DNA of 35,436 nucleotides. It comes from Candidatus Woesearchaeota archaeon. GTDB lineage: Archaea; Nanobdellota; Nanobdellia; Woesearchaeales; GCA-2687795. The stretch covers positions 1 through 35,436 of the forward strand of contig JASMCJ010000058.1 in NCBI GenBank assembly GCA_030753365.1, given 5' to 3'. Under the pieces are notes generated by a model that did not search any database, had not been told where the DNA came from, and worked only from the letters and a program-made list of their open reading frames with translations. Positions 15,979-34,663 of the stretch are shown here, piece after piece (position 1 is the stretch's first letter; each line of letters opens with the position of its first letter). A program made the translations under genes and the position numbers.

Positions 15979-16527
15979 TTGTATAATAGAAACTGGTTAT
16001 TTTATACTATAGCATTCTCAATGCTCAGCATTTCTACTCTCTCCTCCTGTGAGAAAAGGCCAACTGAATCTCTTCAACAAGACACACTTATTCTCGAAAA
16101 CAAAGAATCTCCTTTAGAAGAAAAAACATCTAAAATCTATGTCTTAGACCTAGCATACAACGAAGACAAAACCATCGAACTCTTCACAAAAGAAGCCAGG
16201 CAAGGCTATCCTGACCAAAACTATGAAGATGGAACCTACAGTTATACTATAATCTCCTTAGATAACCAAATACTCCACTCAGCAAACTTCAGAGACCCTT
16301 CTTTAATAGAAACATCCCTTTCAGGAGAAGAACCAGCAATAACACCTCCTCAAAGTTTTGTTGAAAACGGAACACCTATCCAAGAAACTGAATCCCTCTC
16401 AACATATCCTATAGACTTTGTATTATTAGTCCCTTACTTTGATAATGCTGAAAGAGTTGACATCTACGATGACCTTAGCAGTCTTGTAACATCCATTCCC
16501 GTTTCAGACATTCAGATGGGAAGCTAA
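15979..16527 (+). CDS. Putative lipoprotein, paralogous to the post-M64 domain of the giant protein
   Basis: TTG start after GGGGGT; lipobox-like LSSC; shares YPD...DGTY.Y.IISL....L.SANF.DP...FVL..P.F..AE...IYD. Confidence 0.75.
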   Translation: MYNRNWLFYTIAFSMLSISTLSSCEKRPTESLQQDTLILENKESPLEEKTSKIYVLDLAYNEDKTIELFTKEARQGYPDQNYEDGTYSYTIISLDNQILHSANFRDPSLIETSLSGEEPAITPPQSFVENGTPIQETESLSTYPIDFVLLVPYFDNAERVDIYDDLSSLVTSIPVSDIQMGS

Positions 16528-16560
16528 ATCATTATTAAAACAAAAACTAAGTGATATCAA

Positions 16561-19500
16561 ATAGAAAACAAAAAAAAGTGTGATAAACTAATAGGCTTAA
16601 TATTTTTACTCTTAATAATAATAGGAGTAACAAGCCTTACTGGCGCAGAAAACGCCGTTAACTCAGAAGCTGACCTTAACTGCGAGCAAGTTGCTTCTGA
16701 AGACATGCCATCCTTTTCATACTTTGGAATAGAACCCCCAAATACACCTTCCATATCCTCCATACCATATTCTGATCCCTTACCAGACGACCTCTTTAAA
16801 CCCGTAATGGTAAATCTAATGCTTGACATCGAAAAAGAAGGCGATGAAGTTCATGTCTACAAAGTTCTGGACATAGTAGAAGAAAAAGGCTGGACACTAA
16901 CCATCTTTGTAACAGGCGAGTTCGCATCCAACCATCCAGACATTATAAAAGACTTCAATGCCCGAGGCCATGAAATAGGAATCAGTGGCTGGGACAATCA
17001 AGACATCAACTCATTAAGCTATGAAAACCAATTAGACTTAATCAGCAGGTCAATAACCGCTGTAAAACAAGCATTAGAAGTTGAAGAATTTGATATTCAC
17101 TTCAAGCCCTCAAATATTATCTTAGACTATGATAACAATGCAGACACTTTCAAAGTTATGCAAACTCTCAATGTAAAATCCATAGTAGGCATAATCTCTG
17201 TTGGCGAAAACTATCAATGTTGGTACAGCAGGTCAAAAGGCGGAATTTATGACCCTGTTCCAACTCCTTACAATGTTAACGCAATCCCTATATCACGTAT
17301 AGAAGTTAACTCTGAAGAAACACCAGTAGTTGATGATCTCAACCTAATCTCAAATAAATACACCGAACTAACCTCTCCAGAATTTCAAAAAGTCTACCAG
17401 GAAGCATCCACAATAGAAGGTGAAGTCTTTGAAGGCAACACAAAGCCATACGTAAGAACAGTTCTACATTCCTCTGAGCTAAACACCAAAGAAAAGCTTG
17501 AAGACCTCTCAAATTTCCTTAACAGAGTAGAAAAAGCTGAAGGCCAGGTAGAGCCAATAGGAATCTATGCATCAATCCAGGGTTATATAACCACTTTAGA
17601 CTTGAAAGGTCCTGACTCTTCATATCCAGACAAAAGTCAAACACTCAATATAACCTACTATGCAAACCTATACTGCCCATGGTACTACTTTAGAATATAC
17701 GGAAAATACGACTCTCAAAACTGGAAACTATTAGGCCAGGCATCTTATTATGTTACTACAGGAACTAAGAAATTTCAAAAAGGCATCACCGTCCCTAAAC
17801 CTCCAACAGATGCAGATGATGAATACAATGTGAGAATCGTTGGAAGAGCCTGCGCTGGCGCAGCATGCTGGCCAAGCTATAACAATTATGAAAACATGGA
17901 TGAAATCAAAATCAAAATCAACAAAACATGCCAATTAGTATTTGGAAGCGGGAATGCTGCAAGATACGATATAGTCTTTGTCCCTGCAGAATTTGATGAA
18001 GCAGAATTTGACACAACCTTTGCAGCAGCAGTAACAAGCAACTGGAACGCAATCGGCAATGCCGCCCCTTTCAGCGCTAGCAAAAACAAGTTCAATGTTT
18101 GGAAAGTAAACAAATTAGACGATGCAGGCTTAAACTGCCATCAAAACTGTTCTGGATTACCTGCCTGGGCAAGCTCATACTGGTGCTGTAACAAAGCAAA
18201 GGCCAAAGCATTAGCAAGCGAATGTAAAAACAGGGACACAGTAATCACCTTAATTGATTCAACAGACTGGACCGGTTACAGAAGTGGGCCAAGATGCACA
18301 ACAGGTGGAGACCTCATTGTTAAAGCCAGGAACAACCCTGCTATCAACCTGCACGAAATGGGCCATGCCTTTGGCTTAGGAGACGAATATGTGCCTTATA
18401 ACCAAAACTTTACACCTGCCTATGCCCCTTGTGACAACTGCGACAAAAACAGCGCCTGCCCCAAATGGAACGCCAGTCCTAGTTGTATCATGGGATGCAC
18501 CTATAGGAATGATTACAGGTCAACAGCAACATCTGTAATGAGAGACAACCAACTTCCTTTCAATGCAGTCTCTGTTACGCACTTAAATGCTGAGCTTACA
18601 GCATTCTCTTCAGCCGAAGTGAGAGATGTAGGAGACTTAGATGAGCCAGAAATAAAAACATACATCCTTTCATTCATTTATCATGTTGGAAATGACTCTC
18701 TTGCCTTAGAAGATAAAGAGGTTAGAGAAACATATCCAGACGAAAATGACACAGACGGCACTTATAGGTATGAAATTATCTCATTATCTGAAACCAGCCT
18801 TTATTCAGCTAATTTCGTGGACCCCTATTTAGTAACAGATTCTGTCACTCTACTGGAAAGTTCTTTAACACCTCCTGAAGATTTTGTTATCAACGACACA
18901 CCTATACCAGACTATCCTCCACCAGAAGCACCGTCACAGGAATTTGTGTTAATAACGCCATTCTTCTTTGACGCTGAAACAATCAACATCTACGATGAAA
19001 ACAACAGTCTTAAACTTTCCATAGACGTTTCAGAATTTATGAGTGGAGACCTGACAGGAGTGATAAAAGATCCCACTGGTAATCCAGTAGTCAACGCAAT
19101 AGTCTACGCAATCCAGGATAATTACAACTACAGCTCTTCTTCATACACTAATACTAATGGAACCTATGCAATGAGAGGATTAGGTTCAGGCACAGCAAGC
19201 ATAAGAGTCACAGCATTACACGACCTTAACCTAAGAGAAGCTTCAACATCATTTACTATAGTTCCAGGCCAGAGAAATTTACTTAATATTACCCTTGCCC
19301 AATCATCAAGTATCAGCGGTACTGTTACATACCTCAATGGAACAGGCATGCCAAACCCTATCCTTTACTTAGAATACTATGAAGCCCCTCGTTACACTGG
19401 AGATGAAAATGGCAGCTACCTTATGCCTTGGTTAACTCAGGGAGCTCACACACTAAACATAGACACAGGCAACTGGTATATATGGGTTAATAACGACTAT

Positions 19501-22500
19501 ACAAGTTACGGCAGAAACACTCCTTTAAACATTATACTTGGAGAAACAACAACAGTTGATTTCAGTCAGCAGCCACCACCAACATTCAATGATATCACCA
19601 TAAGCCCTCAATATCCAAATGTAAATACAGACGTAACAGTCTCAGCAAACATAACCTCTGAATTTGTTAACATAACTGAAGCTAGATTATTCTATCGTTA
19701 CAACACTTCAGCATGGAACAACCTTACCATGCAGAACACAGGTGACATCTACTCTGCAGCAATCCCTGGAAATGAAAACACATCAAGAGTCTCTTTCTAT
19801 ATAGCTGTAACCGACAGCTCTGGAAGAAGAAAAAGCAATATAAACAAATTCATCATAGACGGAGAAAGTCCCACATTAGCAGGCATCACTGTTCCACAAT
19901 TTGCAGATGTAAATGAAAGCATAACAATCAATGCAAACTTTCAGGACAATGTAGGATTAGCAGCTGCAACCTTATACTATCAGTTCGATGCAGGCTCATT
20001 CAATCCAGTGGCAATGACAGTCGTTGGCAACTCCAGCTCAGGAACAATTCCTCAAAAGAATACTCCCGGCACCGTGGAACTTTATATTCAATCCACTGAC
20101 TTAAGCGGAAACTCTTTCAACACATCCGCATATTATTACATTGTCAAAAGGTTTGGCAGGCTTGAGCCATACTTAATAACCCCCTCAACCAACATACCAG
20201 TATCCAGAAGCCATTTATTTAACTTCAGCTCTGGTGTAAGATGCGTAGGAGGAGAATGCGGTAATATAACATCAATCTTAGATCCTTACGGTCCAGACGG
20301 ATTCAATTACACAGCCCTAAACTCAACAGAAGAAGGAGGCGACCCTTTCGAATGGGAAGAAATCATAACCAATGGTGAAGGAATACCTTTATGGGACATT
20401 GGCCAATCAGCTGATGACAGTTATCAAACTGCGCCCATTAACTTCACATTCCAATTTTACGGAATAAATTACACCAACGCCTATGTATCATCCAATGGGA
20501 GGATACATCTCACAAATAGTGGAGCTGGCAGCACATCTATAAGTTTGCCTTCAAACAGCTATAAAGTAATTGCTCCTCTTAACAGAGACATGTATGTAAG
20601 GTCTAACACTCAGGTATTCTATAAGAATTATGACAATCCTAAGAGGATGGTTATTGAATACAAAAACCTTGATTATTATAGTGGAATCGGTAACTTCAAT
20701 TATGAAATAATCTTATATGAAGATGGAAAAATAAAGATTCAATACAACCAATCAAGCAGCTCCTATGCTCCGGGAAATCAAGCAGGAATAAACCATGGCT
20801 CAACAAACAACTACTATTTATTAATAGAAAACGATGCTCCTGACCTACACAAAGGCGAAGCTGTCACATTCTACCCTCCTTATTATAGTGGCATGTGGAA
20901 AGGAGTCATCCCTATGAACAATGGAACACCTTTCTACACAATAGACCAAAACCCAGCAAGCTGCTACAACATGCAGGAAAACGACACTTGTGAACACACT
21001 TGGAGAGTGAACGCCACAGGTGAGCATCTAACCAACTGGACATTCTTCACAATCTATAATTCACAATACACTAACCACATTGAAGAAAAACAAACTGATA
21101 AAATAAATATAACAATAATCGGCAACAATCTGCCTATTATTTCATCTGTTGAATGTCAGGAAAACAATTCAATCTGGCAAGACTGTTCAAACATCATCTA
21201 CAATGACCTATTAACAAGAGTAAGAGTCAATTGCACAGACTCTGACGGTACTGTCACCAACGTTAATGCAAAACTGGAAAATATTCCAGACAACAACATA
21301 TTCTTTAACAGCTCTTCTGTCCAGAACGGTGATTGGTGGACTTATGACAATGCTGATATCACTATCCAAGACTCAGGCTACTGGAAACTCTCTGTAAGCT
21401 GTACAGACAACGGAGGCGTTGACGGAATAAAACAAGACAATAAAATAATTCAATGGTTAGTTGACTGGGGACATTTAAGCTCTTACATGGCTCAACCTAT
21501 TGGCAATAACCTTAGTGTTAAGCAAAGCATACCTTTCAGTGTCACAACTGGCGTAAGCTGTATTGGCGGAGAATGCGGCAGTATTGAATCTGCTTTAGAC
21601 CCGCAAGGTCCAATCAGAGTTGCTGTCTATAATCATAATGGGATTACAAGTGTGCTTAATGAAGCTTTAGACATAAACGCCACTCAGGTAAGCACTTATA
21701 ATTCTGCAACGCTTGAAAATTATGATGTGCTGATAAATGTTCGTAATTCAAACCTAAACCAGGCAGATGTGCTAAACTTTATCCAGAACGGCGGAGGCTG
21801 GGTAGGTGAATGGACAAGCAATGAGATTCCTGTCACTAACTGGGGCGCAATATCAGGTACATTATCAGGTTCAGGTACTAGCGGCTCTCAAAGTGTAAAC
21901 ATCCTTCTCCCAAACCACTACCTTGCCACTGAAATTGATTGGGCCAACATCCCTGTTGGGGCAAATCCAGTAGACTATATGCGAGACTTAAGAGGCATAA
22001 ACGATCCTGATGCAGAAACCGTAGTCACTGTAAACCATAATTCTTACCCAAACAATCCTTTAATAGTTGACAAAGGATATGGAACCGGGAGAATTGTTCT
22101 ACTCAATTGGGATTATCAGGATTCTCCTAATTATAATGCTTACATAAAAGATATGATTCAGGAAACTGTAAGATGGGCTGCAACTATGGGCAAAGGAGTA
22201 ATCCCTATGAACAATGGCACACCCTTCTACACAACAAACCAAAACCCAGCATTATGCGTCAACATGATAGCAGGCGATGTATGCGAGCACACATGGAATG
22301 TTATGCCAACTGGTGAAGACAACACAACCTGGGACTTCTTCACTATCTATACACCATTAAACTACTCAGCTTATCTAATAGAAAACCGAACAAGAACAGT
22401 CAAAGTAATAATTCTTACCAATCCTCCACCAGCAATCAACCAGCTTGAATGCAATGACGGCAGCAGCTGGCAGTCATGCTCCAACATACAATACAATGAC

Positions 22501-25500
22501 ACACTAACTCAAGTAAGAGTAAACTGCACAGATGCTGATGGTTATATACTATCTGCAAATCTAAGCCTGAAAAACATCCAGGACAGCAACATATTCTTTA
22601 ACAATGCTGCCACCCAGCAAAACGGCTGGTGGACATATGACAACACAGATTTACTAATAGAAGACTCAGGAGATTGGAAATTAACAGCAATCTGCACTGA
22701 CAATGAAAGCACTCAAAACAGCGGTTCTGCTGACAGGTTAGTTAACTGGGGTCATTTAGAATCCTATTTTATTGAACCTCTAGAAAATATCAGCATTATG
22801 CAAAACAAGTTTTTCAATGTCACAACCAGAGTAAGATGTATTGGCGGTGAGTGTGGAAATGTAAGCACTGCTTTAGACCCAGAATCTGCAGCACCAGAAG
22901 AACCAAACCTAAATAAGGCAAGTGACAAAATAGAAACTGAAATAATTGAAGACCTTGACACAGAAGACACCGTCTCTGTAATAGTCATACTAAAAGATGA
23001 AGAACCATCGCAAAAGAGTATGCCAGAAATCAAAGCAAAAGTAAAAGAAAACCAGGACACTGTTTTATCTAACCTTGAAACCGAAGAATTCGACATAAAA
23101 TACAAATACAACACAATAAACGCAATCTCTGGAGAAGCAACAGAACAGGGAATAGAGAAACTAAAGGATAACCCTAACGTTGAAGCAGTTTACAAAAACC
23201 AAGAGTTAAGGATAGTTCTTTCTGAAAGCGTTCCTTTAATAAATGCAGACGACCTTCATTCATTGGGAATAACTGGTGAAGGGCAGACAGTATGCGTTGT
23301 TGACACAGGAATTGATTACGCGCACCCTGACCTTGGAGGCTGCACCCAAAGTGAATTTTTGAATGGACAATGCGCCAAAGTTCCATCTGGCTATGACTTC
23401 TATAACAGTGATACTAACCCAATGGACGACCAGTCTCATGGAACACATGTTGCTGGAATAGTAGCAGCAAACGGTGTTTTAACTGGAGTAGCCCCTAACG
23501 CAAGATTACTTGCTCTAAAAGTATGTAGTTCTGGAGGCAGTTGCAATGGTGATGCAATGATAGCTGGCGTTGACTGGTGCAATGAGCACAAAGACCAGTA
23601 CAACATTGTTGCAACAACAATGAGCATTGGCGATGGTGGGCAATATAATACAAACACTTGCCCTACATGGATGGACACTGCCATAACCACAGCCCATGAC
23701 TTAGGAATAGCTGTAACAATAGCATCCGGAAACGAATATCATAGCAATGGCATCTCTTATCCTGGCTGTTCACCAAACGCAATATCTGTTGGTTCAACAA
23801 CAAAAGCTGATGTCATCTCAGGCTTTTCTAACACTGGAAGCTTGCTTGACGTTTTAGCTCCAGGCAGCAGTATATATGCTCCAATACTCAATGGAGGTTA
23901 TGGCTATAAATCAGGCACATCAATGGCAACACCTCACGTTGCAGGCGCAGTAGCATTACTCTCGCAATACAGTAACCCTTCTGGAGTCAACCAAATTGCT
24001 GCCAGTCCAGATAGGATAAAAGAAGCACTACAGAACACAGGCGTTCCAATAACTGACCCTGACAATGGATTAAGTTTCCCAAGGATAGACTTATTAGCAG
24101 CTCTTGATGAGTTTGGTAAAGGTATAATCCCAATGAACAATGGCACGCCATTCTATACAATAGACCAAAACCCTACAACATGCCAGGACATGAAAGCAAA
24201 TGACGAATGCGATCGTACATGGAGTATTATGCCAACAGGTGAAGAAAACACAACTTGGGACTTCTTCACAATCTATACCCCTACAACCTACTCCAATTAC
24301 TTAAACGGAACTGAAACCAACAAAGTAAGCATAACAATCCTTGGAGCTATTTTGCCTCAGATTAACCAACTTGAATGCAACGATGGCAGTAGCTGGCAGT
24401 CATGCTCCAACATACAATACAATGACATATTAGATCAGGTAAGAGTAAACTGCACAACCCCTAATGGTTCTATAGTCTCTGCTAACCTAAACCTGAAAAA
24501 CATCCAGGACAACAACATCTTCTTTGATAGTACCGCCACCCAACAGAACGGCTGGTGGACATATGATAACACAGATTTCATAATAGAAGATTCAGGCGAC
24601 TGGAAACTAACAGCAGCATGTGTTGACCATGAGGGCATCCAAGGCGATGGTCACTTTGACTGGTTAGTTGATTGGGGTCATTTACAACCTTACTTAATTA
24701 ATCCTACACAATCCACAAATGTTAATCAAAACAAGTTTTTCAACGTCTCAACAGGAGTAAGATGTATAACAGGTGAATGTGGTGATATCGATGTAACATT
24801 AGACCCAGAAGAAATGTCTATTGAGCCAATAGATGTTCTCATAGTTAGCGCAGACTCATCTGTTGACACTGAAGTAAGAAATAAAATATTAACTGCAGGT
24901 GGCTCAAATATAAATTCGGTTGCTATTTTTAATGCGCAATATGGCACACCTACTTTAATCCAATTACAGAATTATAGTGTGGTATTAACCTATTCAAACT
25001 ATCCATATTCTAGTAGTACTGCATTAGGTAACGTATTAGCAGAATATGTAAATAATAGCGGAGGTGTGGTAGTAACTGTATTTTCTCATCACCTATCAAC
25101 CTGGGGCATTACTGGACAATGGCTCTCAGGCCAGTATAATCCAATATTACAACAGAATTCCTATACCAGCGGCACTGTATACCAAGGAACAGTTTACGAA
25201 CCTGGACATCCAATTATGAATGGAGGAGATAATATCAATGGTGGATGGTATTTCCAGACCTCTAGCATAACTCCAAATGCAATCAGAGTTATGGATTGGA
25301 CTAATGAATATATTGGAGCAGCAGTAAAAGAGATTAATAGTGGAAAAGTTGTTGGCCTAAATCTTCGTTATGGTGAGACAACAACATCAGATGGAGCTGA
25401 TTTATTATTAGTTAATTCACTTCTTTGGGCTGCTGGAAGAAGCGGTAGTGCAAAAGGTGTAATCCCAATGAACAATGGAACACCATTCTACACCATAGAT

Positions 25501-26715
25501 CAGAATCCAGCTCAATGTCCAGACATGAGAGCTGGCAACACCTGTGAACACACATGGAGAGTCAACGCAACAGGAGACCTTAATTCATCCTGGCTCTTCT
25601 ATACAATCTATAACTCTATTATTGCAACAAACACAACTGAGAAATTTAATGTAACAATCGTTGATACTATTTGCACTCCAGACTGGGTACTAAACGACAC
25701 CTGGTCAACCTGTGACATCACGGACAATCAATTCAAGAACTATTATGACGCTAACAACTGTGACCTGCCAGAAGCAAGACCTGGCCATATAAACCAAACA
25801 TGCGACTACTGTACACCTGCTCCAACCTACACATCATGGTCAGCTTGGGAAAATCAAGGCAGCTGCTTAATCAATGACACTCAGCTTCAGCAAAGAAACA
25901 GGACAGAATACGATGCAGACTATGACAGCTGCTATGCAGTAACCAACCTAAATTCAGACCTTTGGAACAATGGCAACAACAACACTCACTTAGGCTACCA
26001 GGGTATTGCTTGCGACTACTGCACACCTATTTGGGAAGAAGTCATCAATGAATGTCAGCCAGACGACACTTATACCGGTTGGTACAACGACACCAACGAC
26101 TGTTATGCAATAACAGGCTTAGACTCAGACAATAACCCACCTGCTAACAACATCTATAACTGTGAATATATATGGCAATTCCAAGCTCCACTAAACCAGG
26201 ACTGGAACCTAATCAGTATACCTTTAACACTAAGCAACAACTCCTTTAGCTCTGCCCTTTCATCAATAGAAGGCAAATATAACACACTATTTGCATACGA
26301 CTCTATAGGGAACAGCTGGGACAGTTATTACACAGACGAGCCAGAATTTTTGAACAGCATCTACTCAATAAGTCCTGAAAAAGGTTACTGGGTAAATCTC
26401 TTAGAAGATGCAACATTAACTTTCAGTGGCAGGCTTATAACACAGTTAATCTACAACCTTAAAAATGATTGGAACCTAATCAGTTACCCATCACTAACAG
26501 AACAGCCAGTTACAACAGCATTAGCAGACGTTAATGAGACCTACACAACCATGTTTGCCTTCATCAACGGCACATGGATAAGTTACTCCCCTGAGAAACC
26601 TAGTTTCATGAATAGTTTGGAGATTATGAAACCAGGCTATGGTTACTGGATTAAAGCCAACCAAGATGTAACATGGGTATTCAATGGAACAGTCTATAAA
26701 CTAAGGGACCAATAA
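16561..26715 (+). CDS. Giant secreted modular protein (~3,384 aa): degenerate NodB deacetylase, M64-type metallopeptidase, Ig-like domains, four scaffold repeats with inserts (nidogen-like, two alpha/beta domains, I9+S8 subtilisin), Cys-rich repeats, C-terminal WNLIS double domain
   Basis: HEMGHAFGLGDEY; subtilisin triad VVDTG/HGTHVAG/GTSMATPHVAG; four KG(V/I)IPMNNGTPFYT repeats. The frame extends upstream of ATG 16705 into a signal peptide (ATA start at 16561 inferred). Confidence 0.88.
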   Translation: MENKKKCDKLIGLIFLLLIIIGVTSLTGAENAVNSEADLNCEQVASEDMPSFSYFGIEPPNTPSISSIPYSDPLPDDLFKPVMVNLMLDIEKEGDEVHVYKVLDIVEEKGWTLTIFVTGEFASNHPDIIKDFNARGHEIGISGWDNQDINSLSYENQLDLISRSITAVKQALEVEEFDIHFKPSNIILDYDNNADTFKVMQTLNVKSIVGIISVGENYQCWYSRSKGGIYDPVPTPYNVNAIPISRIEVNSEETPVVDDLNLISNKYTELTSPEFQKVYQEASTIEGEVFEGNTKPYVRTVLHSSELNTKEKLEDLSNFLNRVEKAEGQVEPIGIYASIQGYITTLDLKGPDSSYPDKSQTLNITYYANLYCPWYYFRIYGKYDSQNWKLLGQASYYVTTGTKKFQKGITVPKPPTDADDEYNVRIVGRACAGAACWPSYNNYENMDEIKIKINKTCQLVFGSGNAARYDIVFVPAEFDEAEFDTTFAAAVTSNWNAIGNAAPFSASKNKFNVWKVNKLDDAGLNCHQNCSGLPAWASSYWCCNKAKAKALASECKNRDTVITLIDSTDWTGYRSGPRCTTGGDLIVKARNNPAINLHEMGHAFGLGDEYVPYNQNFTPAYAPCDNCDKNSACPKWNASPSCIMGCTYRNDYRSTATSVMRDNQLPFNAVSVTHLNAELTAFSSAEVRDVGDLDEPEIKTYILSFIYHVGNDSLALEDKEVRETYPDENDTDGTYRYEIISLSETSLYSANFVDPYLVTDSVTLLESSLTPPEDFVINDTPIPDYPPPEAPSQEFVLITPFFFDAETINIYDENNSLKLSIDVSEFMSGDLTGVIKDPTGNPVVNAIVYAIQDNYNYSSSSYTNTNGTYAMRGLGSGTASIRVTALHDLNLREASTSFTIVPGQRNLLNITLAQSSSISGTVTYLNGTGMPNPILYLEYYEAPRYTGDENGSYLMPWLTQGAHTLNIDTGNWYIWVNNDYTSYGRNTPLNIILGETTTVDFSQQPPPTFNDITISPQYPNVNTDVTVSANITSEFVNITEARLFYRYNTSAWNNLTMQNTGDIYSAAIPGNENTSRVSFYIAVTDSSGRRKSNINKFIIDGESPTLAGITVPQFADVNESITINANFQDNVGLAAATLYYQFDAGSFNPVAMTVVGNSSSGTIPQKNTPGTVELYIQSTDLSGNSFNTSAYYYIVKRFGRLEPYLITPSTNIPVSRSHLFNFSSGVRCVGGECGNITSILDPYGPDGFNYTALNSTEEGGDPFEWEEIITNGEGIPLWDIGQSADDSYQTAPINFTFQFYGINYTNAYVSSNGRIHLTNSGAGSTSISLPSNSYKVIAPLNRDMYVRSNTQVFYKNYDNPKRMVIEYKNLDYYSGIGNFNYEIILYEDGKIKIQYNQSSSSYAPGNQAGINHGSTNNYYLLIENDAPDLHKGEAVTFYPPYYSGMWKGVIPMNNGTPFYTIDQNPASCYNMQENDTCEHTWRVNATGEHLTNWTFFTIYNSQYTNHIEEKQTDKINITIIGNNLPIISSVECQENNSIWQDCSNIIYNDLLTRVRVNCTDSDGTVTNVNAKLENIPDNNIFFNSSSVQNGDWWTYDNADITIQDSGYWKLSVSCTDNGGVDGIKQDNKIIQWLVDWGHLSSYMAQPIGNNLSVKQSIPFSVTTGVSCIGGECGSIESALDPQGPIRVAVYNHNGITSVLNEALDINATQVSTYNSATLENYDVLINVRNSNLNQADVLNFIQNGGGWVGEWTSNEIPVTNWGAISGTLSGSGTSGSQSVNILLPNHYLATEIDWANIPVGANPVDYMRDLRGINDPDAETVVTVNHNSYPNNPLIVDKGYGTGRIVLLNWDYQDSPNYNAYIKDMIQETVRWAATMGKGVIPMNNGTPFYTTNQNPALCVNMIAGDVCEHTWNVMPTGEDNTTWDFFTIYTPLNYSAYLIENRTRTVKVIILTNPPPAINQLECNDGSSWQSCSNIQYNDTLTQVRVNCTDADGYILSANLSLKNIQDSNIFFNNAATQQNGWWTYDNTDLLIEDSGDWKLTAICTDNESTQNSGSADRLVNWGHLESYFIEPLENISIMQNKFFNVTTRVRCIGGECGNVSTALDPESAAPEEPNLNKASDKIETEIIEDLDTEDTVSVIVILKDEEPSQKSMPEIKAKVKENQDTVLSNLETEEFDIKYKYNTINAISGEATEQGIEKLKDNPNVEAVYKNQELRIVLSESVPLINADDLHSLGITGEGQTVCVVDTGIDYAHPDLGGCTQSEFLNGQCAKVPSGYDFYNSDTNPMDDQSHGTHVAGIVAANGVLTGVAPNARLLALKVCSSGGSCNGDAMIAGVDWCNEHKDQYNIVATTMSIGDGGQYNTNTCPTWMDTAITTAHDLGIAVTIASGNEYHSNGISYPGCSPNAISVGSTTKADVISGFSNTGSLLDVLAPGSSIYAPILNGGYGYKSGTSMATPHVAGAVALLSQYSNPSGVNQIAASPDRIKEALQNTGVPITDPDNGLSFPRIDLLAALDEFGKGIIPMNNGTPFYTIDQNPTTCQDMKANDECDRTWSIMPTGEENTTWDFFTIYTPTTYSNYLNGTETNKVSITILGAILPQINQLECNDGSSWQSCSNIQYNDILDQVRVNCTTPNGSIVSANLNLKNIQDNNIFFDSTATQQNGWWTYDNTDFIIEDSGDWKLTAACVDHEGIQGDGHFDWLVDWGHLQPYLINPTQSTNVNQNKFFNVSTGVRCITGECGDIDVTLDPEEMSIEPIDVLIVSADSSVDTEVRNKILTAGGSNINSVAIFNAQYGTPTLIQLQNYSVVLTYSNYPYSSSTALGNVLAEYVNNSGGVVVTVFSHHLSTWGITGQWLSGQYNPILQQNSYTSGTVYQGTVYEPGHPIMNGGDNINGGWYFQTSSITPNAIRVMDWTNEYIGAAVKEINSGKVVGLNLRYGETTTSDGADLLLVNSLLWAAGRSGSAKGVIPMNNGTPFYTIDQNPAQCPDMRAGNTCEHTWRVNATGDLNSSWLFYTIYNSIIATNTTEKFNVTIVDTICTPDWVLNDTWSTCDITDNQFKNYYDANNCDLPEARPGHINQTCDYCTPAPTYTSWSAWENQGSCLINDTQLQQRNRTEYDADYDSCYAVTNLNSDLWNNGNNNTHLGYQGIACDYCTPIWEEVINECQPDDTYTGWYNDTNDCYAITGLDSDNNPPANNIYNCEYIWQFQAPLNQDWNLISIPLTLSNNSFSSALSSIEGKYNTLFAYDSIGNSWDSYYTDEPEFLNSIYSISPEKGYWVNLLEDATLTFSGRLITQLIYNLKNDWNLISYPSLTEQPVTTALADVNETYTTMFAFINGTWISYSPEKPSFMNSLEIMKPGYGYWIKANQDVTWVFNGTVYKLRDQ
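26188..26715 (+). repeat. WNLIS...P(E/G)xGYW double domain, copy 1 (copy 2 at 34142..34663)
   Basis: Ungapped hand alignment gives about 112/170 aa identical; near-identical DNA stretches such as TGGAACCTAATCAGTTA and ATGAAACCAGGCTATGG. Confidence 0.9.
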
Positions 26716-29554: not shown

Positions 29555-31009
29555 ATGAAACCTAACTTATCAAAACTCTTTGCAATCCTTGTAACATTCT
29601 TAATCAGTTTAACCCCTATCTGCTCTGCAAGCCAATCATACAATCTTCAATATGATCTTAATGGAAATTTAATTCAGGACAAAGATAACTTTTATGAATA
29701 TAACAGTCTAAATCAGTTAACCAGAATAAGACAAAATAATGAAAATGGCAGAATTCTTGAAGAATACGATTATGATAATAACGGAGACAGAATAAAAAAG
29801 GTCAGCTATCATGAAGACCTCTCTAACACAATAACATATTATATAAATAAAAACTTCATAAGGGTCATAAACAATTCAGGAACTTACGACTTTATATACT
29901 ATTATAATGATGGCCAGCTAATAGCCAAGCAAAACCCTGACAATTCTAAATCCTATTACCACCCAGACCATTTAGGAAGCAACAATATCATAACCGATGA
30001 AGCTGGAAACAAAATAGAAGAAACCACTTACTTACCCTTTGGAGACATTCTTGAAGGAGGCAACGACAGGTTCACATACACCGGAAAAGAAAAAGACTCC
30101 ACTGGCTTAATGTATTATGGTGCAAGATACTATTCTCCATTCTTAAGAAGATTCACCCAACCAGACACATTAATCCAGGACATCTATGACCCTCAATCAT
30201 TAAACAGATATGCCTATGCAAGAAACAATCCTTTAGTATACAAAGATGATAGCGGTCATTTCTGGCATATAGCATTAGGCATGGCAATTGGTGGTGTAAT
30301 AGGAGGAGGAGCTAATCTAATAGGCCAGGTATTAAATGGTGCTTCATTATTTGATGGTTCTGTTAACTGGGGTTCTGTTGGTATAAGCGCTGTTGCAGGT
30401 TCAGTTTTTGGAGGAGTAGCCACTGCAACATTTGGCTTAGGAATAGCAGCTGCAGGTACAGGATATGGAGGATATGCTTTAGGAGGTGCAATTTCATGAT
30501 TAACTGGAGGAAGAGCCTCGCAATTAACTTCTAACTTAATAACCAAAGACAACTCTTGGAATGATGACCTTCTCAATGTAAAAGATATTACCATAGAAAC
30601 AGGCGGCGGTGCTATATTCGGTATGGCTGGGAAAGCTGTAGGTTCGGTTTTCGGCAAAGGAAAAGTCTCTTCTAAACCAAATCTTAAATCTGGAAAAGTT
30701 CAGGAATTTCCCATCAAAGATTTGTATGGTACGCATCAGTTAAGTAAAAAATACGTTTTAGCACCTGAGAAAATAAAGTTAGGTAAGAGTAAAGGACCTA
30801 TAGAAATTTTTAATTATGAAGGAAAATTAATAATTAATGATGGAATGGGGAGAACAGCAAGATCAAAATTAGTGTATGGGAAAGATACTGTATCAGGTAG
30901 GATTAGTAACCCTTCTCCTGGAGATATTGGTGGGTGGGAATATGCTAGATATCTTAATCAAAGAAGTAATCAAGAGAATATGATTGAATTAATTGGAAAC
31001 ATGAAATAA
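29555..31009 (+). pseudogene. Secreted mini-Rhs: signal peptide, Rhs core, Gly-rich segment and ParB/Srx-like C-terminal toxin, interrupted by one in-frame TGA at 30497..30499
   Basis: YHPDHLGS, RFTYTGKEKD.TGLMYYGARYY, NRYAYARNNP....D..G. ORFs 29555..30499 and 30623..31009 share a frame with no other stop; C-terminal PIEIF...GKLIINDGMGR. Confidence 0.8.
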
Positions 31010-31783: not shown

Positions 31784-34663
31784 TTGGGAGGAATAACAAC
31801 CCTTGACTATAAAAAAATAGCATCATTAGACAACACTGGAAATGATAATATAAATGATTTAGGATTTAATGGTTGGGTAGTTAACACTATAGAAAATAAC
31901 AATAACATTTTTGGAACTCAAAACACCATCTCAACTCATAATATTAGTTATGAAAATGGAATGTTTGATCCAGATGAAAGGCAATTTGCAGGGTTTGCTT
32001 ATGTTGAAGAAACAAGAAACCAAAAAACCAAAATAAGACATAATTTCTTCCAAGATAAAGGAAAAAGGGGCTTGGAATATGAAACAGAAATCTTGAATAC
32101 TAGCAATAATCTTTTCAAAAAAATTCAAAATGAATTCACATCCACTTATGATGATGAATATTATGTCAACACTTTACTCTGGACAATTAACTCCTTATAT
32201 GATGAATCAGTTGAAACTCCTTCACAAACTAAAATCCAATTTGGCTATGATAACTATGGAAACATAATAAGCACATCTTATCTAGGAGACACTTCAAAAA
32301 CAGGAGACGAAAAATATCTCTACAATGAATATCTTTACAACACTGACAACTGGATTATCGACCTGCCAAAACATACCTATCTATTAGAATCTGACGATTC
32401 AACCAAAGTAAGTGAAACTTGGTATAGCTATGACAGCAATGGGTACAACGAGAACCCAACAAGGGGCGACATAACTTCTATAGAATACTGGCTTGACATA
32501 GGAACAAACCCAGTTGAAACATACCACTATGACACCTACGGAAACGTTTTAACCTACACTAATCCTCTAAGCCATTCCACTCACTACACATATGGCTCAA
32601 ACAACACATTCATCATAAGAGAAACAAACGCAATAGGTCATGAAACAAATTATGAATATGACAAAGGAACAGGTAACATTCTATCAGAAACAGACCCAAA
32701 CGGTATCAGAATAGAATATCACTATGATGTATTTGGAAGAAAAGTTAAAGAAATTCTTCCTTATGATTCTATAGACTATCCTTCTATTCAGATAGAATAT
32801 AATTTAGACGGTACTGCTCCCGAAGAAATAAAAGTAATGAACAGAGAACAATCTGGTACAACCAACACATTTGATACTTACTTTTATTATGACGGATTTT
32901 GGAGATTGATTCAAAAAAAGAGTGAATCAGAACAGCAGGAATTAATAACATCTGATATCTACTATGATAAAACTGGAAAAATAAAGCAAGAAAGCAATCC
33001 TTACTATTCCAGCACAGGGTATACCATCCCCAATGAAAACATAAACTCTATAACTTATACTTATGACCCTCTCGGAAGAATAACACACACAAACTATCCT
33101 GATGGTTCTGCTGAAAACATTATTTATAATAACTGGGAAACCTTGATTTATGACAGGAATGGCAACATCAAAGAATACGAACATGATGCATACGACAGAA
33201 CAACCAAGGTAAAAGAACATAATAATAATGAAATATACACAACATCATACTTCTACGATGATAATGATAACCTTATCAAAATATTAGACAACCAAGATAA
33301 TTTTATCCAGTATGAATATGACAGCCTTAGCAGAAAAATAGGATTAGACGACATGGATTTAGGTATATGGTCTTATATTTACGATACTATTGGAAACTTA
33401 ATAACACAAACAGATAACAAAGGCAATATAATACATTTAACATATGATCAATTAAACAGGATTACACATAAAGAATTCAGTGAAGGAGACATTACATATA
33501 CTTATGATGTTAACACTCTGGGAACCCTCACCTCAATCCAAACACCTACTCTCCTAAGAAATTTCTGGTATGATAATAAATTCAGAAAAATAAGAGAAGA
33601 AAAGGTCATTGATGGAACATCTTTTGACACACTGTATAGTTATGATTCAATGGACAGGTTAATATCCAAAACTCTTCCCAATGAAGAAATTATAAACTAT
33701 GAATACAATGACCAATCCCTTCTTGAATCTATCCCTTCAATCATAAACAACATTGATTATAATGAAATGTCTCAAACATCAACTAGAAACTATGCTAACA
33801 ATCTTGATACTCAATTTGAATATGAGCCTTACAATTATAGGTTGCATGAAATAAGCACAGAAAATATTCAGGAACTTGAATATTCTTATGATAACATAGG
33901 GAACGTTTTACAAACAAATGACATTATGAACAATAAAATAAGTGAATTTGAATATGATGATTTACACAGGTTAACACATGCTCAACGCCCTTCAGATTTT
34001 GACATTCATTATATATATGATAGTATAGGAAACCTCTTGGACATATCTTCAGAAAGACTTAATGCTACATTCTACTATAATAATGGACTTGCGCACACTC
34101 CAATTATGATAAATGATAAGAGCGTACCTCTTCTCACCATCCCTTTGGAAAAAGAATGGAATCTTATATCCATACCATTGGTTTTAGAAGAAAACACTTT
34201 CCCAAAAACTCTTTTATCATTAACTGGCAAATACACCACCATCTTTGCATACAACTCATCAGAAAATACCTGGGACAGCTATTACACAAACCAACCTTCT
34301 TTCCTAAACTCAATAGACTCAATAACTCCAGAGAAAGGCTACTGGATAGAAATGATTGAAAACGCCACACTAACCATCCCAGGAGACCTTCCAACATCAA
34401 CCGTCTACAACCTTTACAACGGCTGGAACCTAATCAGTTATCCTTCACTAACAGAGCAGCCAATCGCCTCAACCTTAGCCAACGTAAACGAAACCTTCAC
34501 AACTATCTTCACATTCAACAACAATGTTTGGGAAAGCTACTCTCCAAACAAACCATCCTTCCTCAACACACTGCAAACCATGAAACCAGGCTATGGCTAC
34601 TGGATAAAAGCAAATCAAAATGTAACTTGGCAATTCAACGGCACGCATTACAACATAAACTAA
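31784..34663 (+). CDS. Rhs/YD-repeat shell (TcdB-midN-like start), N-terminally truncated, lacking Rhs core and toxin, with C-terminal WNLIS double domain
   Basis: Frame open from 31694 (KVWVNNHPKQYLLKEIKNSLGG); ERQFAGFAYV; many YDxxG(N/R) repeats; ends LAHTP then the WNLIS domain. Confidence 0.82.
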   Translation: MGGITTLDYKKIASLDNTGNDNINDLGFNGWVVNTIENNNNIFGTQNTISTHNISYENGMFDPDERQFAGFAYVEETRNQKTKIRHNFFQDKGKRGLEYETEILNTSNNLFKKIQNEFTSTYDDEYYVNTLLWTINSLYDESVETPSQTKIQFGYDNYGNIISTSYLGDTSKTGDEKYLYNEYLYNTDNWIIDLPKHTYLLESDDSTKVSETWYSYDSNGYNENPTRGDITSIEYWLDIGTNPVETYHYDTYGNVLTYTNPLSHSTHYTYGSNNTFIIRETNAIGHETNYEYDKGTGNILSETDPNGIRIEYHYDVFGRKVKEILPYDSIDYPSIQIEYNLDGTAPEEIKVMNREQSGTTNTFDTYFYYDGFWRLIQKKSESEQQELITSDIYYDKTGKIKQESNPYYSSTGYTIPNENINSITYTYDPLGRITHTNYPDGSAENIIYNNWETLIYDRNGNIKEYEHDAYDRTTKVKEHNNNEIYTTSYFYDDNDNLIKILDNQDNFIQYEYDSLSRKIGLDDMDLGIWSYIYDTIGNLITQTDNKGNIIHLTYDQLNRITHKEFSEGDITYTYDVNTLGTLTSIQTPTLLRNFWYDNKFRKIREEKVIDGTSFDTLYSYDSMDRLISKTLPNEEIINYEYNDQSLLESIPSIINNIDYNEMSQTSTRNYANNLDTQFEYEPYNYRLHEISTENIQELEYSYDNIGNVLQTNDIMNNKISEFEYDDLHRLTHAQRPSDFDIHYIYDSIGNLLDISSERLNATFYYNNGLAHTPIMINDKSVPLLTIPLEKEWNLISIPLVLEENTFPKTLLSLTGKYTTIFAYNSSENTWDSYYTNQPSFLNSIDSITPEKGYWIEMIENATLTIPGDLPTSTVYNLYNGWNLISYPSLTEQPIASTLANVNETFTTIFTFNNNVWESYSPNKPSFLNTLQTMKPGYGYWIKANQNVTWQFNGTHYNIN
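34142..34663 (+). repeat. WNLIS...P(E/G)xGYW double domain, copy 2
   Basis: Paralog of 26188..26715. Confidence 0.9.

Follow-up and report, generated by a model that had tools for sequence, protein, structure and literature searches.

The window analysed here, a stretch of 35,436 nucleotides in its whole length, encodes a giant secreted protein in which an Ig-like scaffold domain occurs four times and is interrupted each time, at the same loop, by a different passenger domain. That these scaffolds represent a split Ig chassis carrying diverse cargo is well supported and, from our point of view, close to certain. In the homologues of this chassis, the Asp-Pro at the end of the N-terminal half (N-half) and the Lys at the start of the C-terminal half (C-half) are coupled, and the two halves also occur on separate genes; both observations are new here and had been missed by the first-pass annotation. 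We interpret them as signs of a clip-and-link reaction, namely self-cleavage at Asp-Pro followed by formation of an Asp-Lys isopeptide between the two halves of one Ig domain, a reading to which we assign a probability of roughly 0.55. The more general claim that the halves become covalently linked through Asp and Lys is, taken by itself, likely.

The gene lies in a genome of 0.9 Mb (94.5% complete) and is organised as follows:

16705..26715, + strand: gene of the giant secreted protein, 3336 aa counted from the first ATG
20149..20286, + strand: scaffold 1 N-half, with the first Ig strands, the CxxxxC loop and the LDP end (Asp-Pro codons 20281-20286)
20287..20898, + strand: passenger 1, nidogen-like beta domain, 204 aa (Pfam)
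20899..21120, + strand: scaffold 1 C-half, with the KG start and Lys1399
21121..21462, + strand: linker Ig-like domain 1 (weak Big_7 match)
21463..21603, + strand: scaffold 2 N-half (Asp-Pro 21598-21603)
21604..22191, + strand: passenger 2, ThuA-like alpha/beta domain, 196 aa (Pfam)
22192..22416, + strand: scaffold 2 C-half, Lys1830
22417..22743, + strand: linker Ig-like domain 2
22744..22881, + strand: scaffold 3 N-half (Asp-Pro 22876-22881)
22882..24117, + strand: passenger 3, I9 propeptide and S8 subtilase with catalytic motifs, 412 aa
24118..24342, + strand: scaffold 3 C-half, Lys2472
24343..24669, + strand: linker Ig-like domain 3
24670..24807, + strand: scaffold 4 N-half (Asp-Pro 24802-24807)
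24808..25452, + strand: passenger 4, 215 aa, without family, common to the congener G001
25453..25662, + strand: scaffold 4 C-half, Lys2917
25663..26715, + strand: Cys-rich repeats and duplicated C-terminal domain, in which no transmembrane anchor was found

The first-pass annotation had proposed four scaffold copies, each with an LDP and a KG half, and its insert boundaries are identical to those of the four passengers above. V.C..GECG.....LDP indeed occurs at residues 1178, 1617, 2043 and 2685 and KG[VI]IPMNNGTPFYT at residues 1399, 1830, 2472 and 2917, while neither motif was seen in 2000 shuffles of the protein. The scaffolds are separated by spacers of 230-235 aa, each composed of a C-half, a linker Ig domain and the next N-half, with 54-55% identity to the first spacer. 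With regard to the passengers, the proposed I9 and subtilisin domains of insert 3 were recovered by Pfam as I9 and S8 with intact Asp, His and Ser motifs; insert 1 matched NIDO (E 1e-4) and insert 2 a ThuA-like family (E 7e-7), both below cut-off, and insert 4 gave no useful Pfam match. Passenger 1 has 14 homologous inserts in other scaffolds. The 5' part of the gene encodes a polysaccharide deacetylase-like domain, a weakly M64-like HExxH domain and carboxypeptidase-regulatory-like domains.

The reading frame is open from 16555, and a hydrophobic, signal-like stretch without an in-frame ATG, GTG or TTG start is encoded upstream of the first ATG; a GTG at 16551, in another frame, runs through an A8 tract to a stop. 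A non-standard ATA start or slippage is possible, and no indel near the start was found among the matches listed in four metagenome runs. Further upstream (15979-16527) lies a small lipoprotein-like gene with 43% identity to residues 645-781 of the giant protein. The window also holds two RHS-repeat ORFs (29555-30499 and 31784-34663), the longer of which gave a TcdB_toxin_midN-like match and closes with the duplicated C-terminal domain of the giant protein.

The postulated discontinuous Ig-like domain is supported by the AlphaFold model of repeat 1 (pLDDT 85.8, pTM 0.71), in which the two halves align as one Ig sandwich of about 100 residues. The model was computed from a 28-row alignment that included 14 natural empty copies; these rows aided the prediction, yet they are natural sequences and as such themselves evidence for one domain. 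In a structure search the model aligned from residues 1-6 to residues 323-324 on contiguous Ig domains of about 100 residues, the matches to 9fyo (Z 10.5), CARDB 3idu (Z 10.2, rmsd 2.5, 101 aligned, chain 436-540) and CLIPPER 9ifr (Z 9.1) being effectively tied. Since the alignment runs end to end on contiguous domains, both halves are predicted to form one sandwich. The insert would consequently leave the sandwich behind the strand formed by model residues 38-44, at an internal loop that has Asp45 and Lys251 (model numbering) on its two sides. Foldseek of the model against PDB returned nothing at E 0.001 or better, a PDB sequence search gave no match for the scaffold at E up to 1, and Pfam scans of the separate halves gave no family match (CARDB/NEW3/DUF11 and PF08985 included). 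Language-model neighbours of the scaffold include CARDB/NEW3 at 0.85, which we regard as a lead only; in the homologue P0064 a CARDB match lies at 1348-1458, outside its empty scaffold at 265-393. A single-sequence prediction of repeat 2 (pLDDT 31) was set aside.

The chassis is widespread. The N-half profile matched 971 proteins among 50%-identity representatives, and the named homologues belong chiefly to Woesearchaeota, Pacearchaeota and other DPANN archaea. In a sample from the order, about one genome in three carries it (N-half in 50 and C-half in 47 of 151, tallies that include G120), compared to 41 and 43 of 201 genomes, respectively, in a class-level sample; the holders among those listed stem from marine, seawater or vent metagenomes, with one unlabelled, and from 16 studies. 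RNA data sets did not appear among these holders, which says nothing about expression. Among 446 sequences searched, 227 had matches, which gave 267 N-then-C pairs, 28 lone N-halves and 33 lone C-halves, many of the lone ones being due to contig ends, and a further set of 114 proteins yielded 237 pairs. The first-pass annotation had suggested that homologues should carry varied inserts and that empty versions be searched for, and both were found: 485 inserts of at least 80 aa fall into 148 clusters, or 102 if grouped by any BLAST link, and 36 natural empty copies have loops of at most 12 aa. In 20 selected proteins, Pfam matches within the inserts comprise S8, papain C1, gingipain C25, CBM96, MAM, F5/8, fibrinogen C, GEVED, FG-GAP, glycine-rich and propeller domains. 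Some scaffolds are apparently nested one inside another's insert (P0243, P0260, P0306; L045), with N-to-C spans of up to 2665 aa. Two patterns found no relatives in viral contigs, and a literature search with poor coverage of subscription papers found no description of a split-Ig LDP/KG family.

To quantify the coupling, 476 of 514 non-redundant pairs were counted as loaded (insert of at least 80 aa) and compared to the 36 empty copies (loop of at most 12 aa), with Lys scored at the last insert position or the first C-half position. Among the loaded scaffolds, in counts that kinship inflates, 412 carry both Asp-Pro and Lys, 46 neither, 10 only Asp-Pro and 8 only Lys, and six of the ten with Asp-Pro only have a Lys one place earlier. 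Asp-Pro is absent from 35 of the 36 empty copies. The later set of 114 proteins gave the same picture (197 both, 20 neither, 3 Asp-Pro only, 2 Lys only; empties neither in 15/15). In 24 groups of scaffolds without Asp-Pro, which include a few doubtful pairings, Lys was lost entirely in 19, partly in two and kept in three, whereas the nearest Asp-Pro-bearing scaffold kept it in all 24 cases. On the best tree Asp-Pro changes at least 19 times, but just three independent pairs lie on well-supported branches; these go nearly always in the same direction (p 0.25), the tree test being underpowered.

Further residues follow the same pattern. Pro follows in 422 of the 430 scaffolds with Asp; Glu-Pro or Asn-Pro in place of Asp-Pro was found in none of the loaded scaffolds, and Arg in place of Lys in none of the ten with Asp-Pro only. 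Coupled to Asp-Pro are also the Gly after Lys, the PF in the PFYT motif and a pair of Phe with which a later strand begins (98% vs 50%, 81% vs 34%), columns that, judging from strand order, would sit at the same pole of the Ig fold; in copies without Asp-Pro, conservation is also somewhat lower at other columns. The empty loop of P0064 reads D-P-E-K, with Asp and Lys three residues apart, and the two must hence be neighbours. The residues after Pro are unconstrained, be it at the start of one of the 148 insert clusters or of a short tail, and the motif is LDP-x; a His stands behind the Pro in only 2 of 220 scaffolds. No second conserved acid or other catalytic helper residue was found in the scaffold. 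Three other candidates were rejected: the Glu of GECG as a catalytic residue (present in 34%, uncoupled from Asp-Pro), a Lys-Asn bond via NP or NATG (these Asn are kept equally in copies without Asp-Pro) and cleavage of a trypsin type at the Lys (Arg was not seen there). All 18 protease-like passengers sit in scaffolds with both Asp-Pro and Lys, which is near expectation given the background of 87%. As 54 loaded scaffolds do without Asp-Pro, the motif is dispensable for carrying cargo, and a Pro and then Gly at this loop are also compatible with a structural turn in CARDB/NEW3-like domains, which counts against self-cleavage.

The second line of evidence comes from split genes. Ten genes with verified stop codons end 0-62 residues past LDP (N-half at most 70 aa from the stop), and all ten of these donors keep the Asp-Pro:

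G000:C5 (own genome; L016 5508-7190): 0 residues after LDP
L075: 0 residues after LDP; 84% identical to G000:C5, different stop codon
G001: 1 residue after LDP
G039: 3 residues after LDP
G125, two donors: 12 residues after LDP
G147: 31 residues after LDP
G134: 32 residues after LDP
G078: 59 residues after LDP
L073: 62 residues after LDP

G000:C5 and L075 thus both end at the Pro itself. Lone C-half genes, the putative acceptors, occur in five donor-bearing genomes and keep the Lys in all five. They lie one or two places 3' of the donor and begin with a signal-like stretch in G125, G134 and the single-contig genome G078, whereas that of G039 lies on another contig and that of G147 on a contig truncated at the 5' side. 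The donors of G039, G078, G134 and G147 contain an internal hydrophobic helix, the acceptors only an N-terminal one. Two observations speak against a simple pairing. In the window's own genome, which is 94.5% complete as noted, the donor is present and a lone C-half was not found. One lone C-half (L048 in G061) has no Lys and is probably a degenerate cis copy. A comparison of donor kinship, based on just 46 residues, hints at several origins, most candidates resembling cis copies at least as closely as they resemble each other.

Contig-cut ORFs (G275, G185, L076) were left out of this count, as were candidates known as protein only, with ends unchecked in the DNA, two of whose tails match passenger starts. 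Frame breaks within inserts of G008 (L024), G032 (L043), G086 (L038) and G091 (L036) were rejected as frameshifts or in-frame stops; they may be assembly errors or decay, and in G091 the passenger breaks twice at similar places. Lone N-halves with a long tail and without Asp-Pro (e.g., with a YAQY end) were taken to be divergent intact domains, and apart from the fragment P0028 the first protein set contained no stand-alone subunit running from C-half to N-half. In the candidate donors P0295, P0312, P0270, P0044 and P0051 the tail past LDP ends in an amphipathic-looking helix, P0295 comprising only 124 aa (signal, N-half and tail). G000:C5 and L075 both start with a signal-like stretch, after which come just ~30 residues from the end of a LamG domain; this may be a second split-domain connector. 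One G125 donor (L037 3782-5083) carries I9 together with a subtilase domain reduced to its N-terminal part.

From these observations the following sequence of events can be proposed. After secretion, (i) the two halves would pair by strand complementation, (ii) the Asp side chain would attack its own carbonyl, releasing the Pro and leaving an anhydride, and (iii) the adjacent Lys would capture the anhydride as an Asp-Lys isopeptide. In cis, the 3336-aa protein would become a covalent branched stalk of five pieces with each passenger attached through its C-terminus and its N-terminus free; such a stalk would outlast zymogen processing of the I9-subtilase passenger, whose inhibitory propeptide would be shed. 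Because a passenger that is cut needs no closely spaced termini, new cargo could be gained over evolution. In trans, the reaction would couple a protein that ends in LDP and an expendable tail to a secreted KG-half protein from another gene, which amounts to sortase-like chemistry without a sortase. The strictness of both Asp and Lys is suggestive of a covalent bond, and that of the Pro, which persists even where it is the final residue, together with the lack of a catalytic acid favours the FrpC anhydride route over the CnaA/CnaB triad.

The same residues could also be joined differently. If an isopeptide formed between the Asp and Lys side chains with the backbone uncut, the passenger would be ringed and bypassed by the stalk, as happens in pilin domains that hold an inserted domain, and the split genes would correspond to SpyTag/SpyCatcher-like pairs. 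The coupling of Asp-Pro and Lys, the absence of Glu or Arg and the coupled aromatic residues agree equally with such a bond, and the bonds of RrgA and Spy0125 span inserted domains (PMC12617251). It would, however, lack a second conserved acid as catalyst, it leaves both the Pro after Asp and its retention at the very end of donors unexplained, and the residues lie at a loop instead of on the first strand and the last or next-to-last one, for which reasons we consider it unlikely. A non-covalent clasp, in which the Pro kinks the chain outward, an Asp-Lys salt bridge pins the linkers and the split genes dock by strand complementation only, seems to us no more probable than the uncut isopeptide. 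It accounts for the single fold, for the loss of the residues in empty copies and for the functional-looking loaded copies without Asp-Pro. A salt bridge should tolerate Glu and Arg, though, so that their absence speaks against it, and at the extreme end of a donor there is nothing left to kink. One could also speculate that LDP and KG are sites at which a separate sortase-like transpeptidase cuts and ligates, since the donors, with a motif and a short and in some cases amphipathic tail, resemble sorting signals and the same residues would be coupled; given the unconstrained residues past the Pro and the lack of a candidate enzyme beside the loci read, we hold this to be improbable.

Lastly, the flanks could serve as DNA recombination sites for cassette exchange, with the split genes as by-products. 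This had been part of the first-pass reading, which described the spacers near 22435 and 24360 as nearly identical in DNA. Such identity holds over ~90 nt (92%; 55/60 identical in two windows, longest exact run 37 nt) but drops to 81% over 300 nt. Between the copies in the gene the linkers are 63-80% and the scaffold halves just 56-74% identical as DNA, conservation being at the amino-acid level. The idea of swappable cargo stood insofar as cargo differs between species: in G001 the first KG flank (C-half) is 88% identical, yet carries a different 152-aa insert, and its N-terminal region differs, whereas it has the last part of insert 4 as well as the C-terminal region in common with the 3336-aa protein. 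Recombination-driven exchange within the species was not detected. Among the matches listed, contigs of all four metagenomes (four studies) showed no joint or loose end at the LDP/KG junctions and no strain-level swap, contigs being prone to lose rare variants; the contigs show point differences, and in two runs single contigs span every insert. P0002, 99% identical to the 3336-aa protein, has the same four inserts. Strain differences cluster in two runs at 19599-20049, upstream of scaffold 1, and at 22735-22741 in linker 2. Cargo hence turns over between species and not detectably within this one, and neither near-identical DNA sites among the copies nor, in the four runs, mixed cargo in the population, as in a shufflon, were seen. 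Since cassette exchange also leaves the coupling of Asp-Pro and Lys and the cross-species retention of donor ends unexplained, we consider it very improbable; coupling and split genes instead point to a protein-level reason for the conserved flanks.

We therefore return to self-cleavage and Lys capture as the preferred reading. It leads to a wider proposal, for which we judge the odds to be slightly short of even, namely that DPANN archaea possess an enzyme-free ligation module in which folding triggers cleavage and a fixed Lys captures the product, both to build branched, bottlebrush-like surface proteins from a polyprotein and to staple secreted proteins to partners that come from other genes and are sometimes membrane-anchored. 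Little is known of how DPANN symbionts assemble giant surface proteins and hold them in place while lacking the greater part of the envelope machinery. Considering its presence in about a third of the order's sampled genomes and its protease, lectin-like and adhesion-type cargo, the chassis may be a main assembly device of the host-contact surface. Even without the chemistry, one loop that accepts more than 100 unrelated domains, nests within itself and is also split across genes is unusual. If the chemistry is true, the chassis would represent a clip-and-link reaction that is site-specific and built on an Ig fold, and its two parts (~46 and 75 residues) would make a ligation tool, comparable to a SpyTag pair but of natural origin, that could stand in for a sortase by itself.

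Among known systems, CARDB/NEW3 is the nearest fold, yet neither half has a Pfam match to it. In the DP-EP family (PF08985; SO1698), a small beta protein cleaves itself at Asp-Pro and forms an Asp-Lys bond within the same molecule. The family is not known to have passengers or split genes, and its profile gave no matches in the window's own genome, nor in control genomes. An autocatalytic Asp-Pro cut in repeated extracellular domains, some of them without the motif as in the scaffold, is described for the GDPH-cleaved VWD domains of FCGBP and mucins (PMC10880436); what is described there is hydrolysis only, at a GDPH motif that differs from that of the scaffold, in another fold and with no cargo insertion. 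Strand complementation of a partial Ig fold is found in archaea as well, since in the thread protein Saci_0406 an incomplete Ig fold is completed by another chain and strengthened by an isopeptide-type bond (PMC9715654). There, a single N-terminal strand is donated within a homopolymer and Asn is bonded to the N-terminal amine, whereas in the scaffold ~46 residues pair with ~75, usually in cis.

CnaA and CnaB domains rely on a triad of Lys, Asn (or Asp) and a catalytic acid on the first and the last or penultimate strands, with the backbone uncut, and in RrgA, Spy0125 and CLIPPER/DUF11 an Ig-like stalk domain is likewise interrupted by a functional domain with the bond across the insertion (PMC12617251). 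The scaffold has no such triad, only one conserved acid, and its residues flank an internal loop; CnaA/CnaB have few insert types, whereas the scaffold has over 100 of them and also occurs split between genes. A counterpart in chemistry is the SPM of FrpC (RTX clip-and-link), for which extracellular Asp-Pro cleavage, an aspartic anhydride and an Asp-Lys isopeptide are described (PMC7078468, PMC7846742), i.e., the same chemistry as proposed here from a sequence signature. The SPM is a 177-residue calcium-binding domain that directly follows the Pro and links to non-specific lysines, whereas in the scaffold anything can follow the Pro, and an Ig sandwich offers one fixed, conserved Lys.
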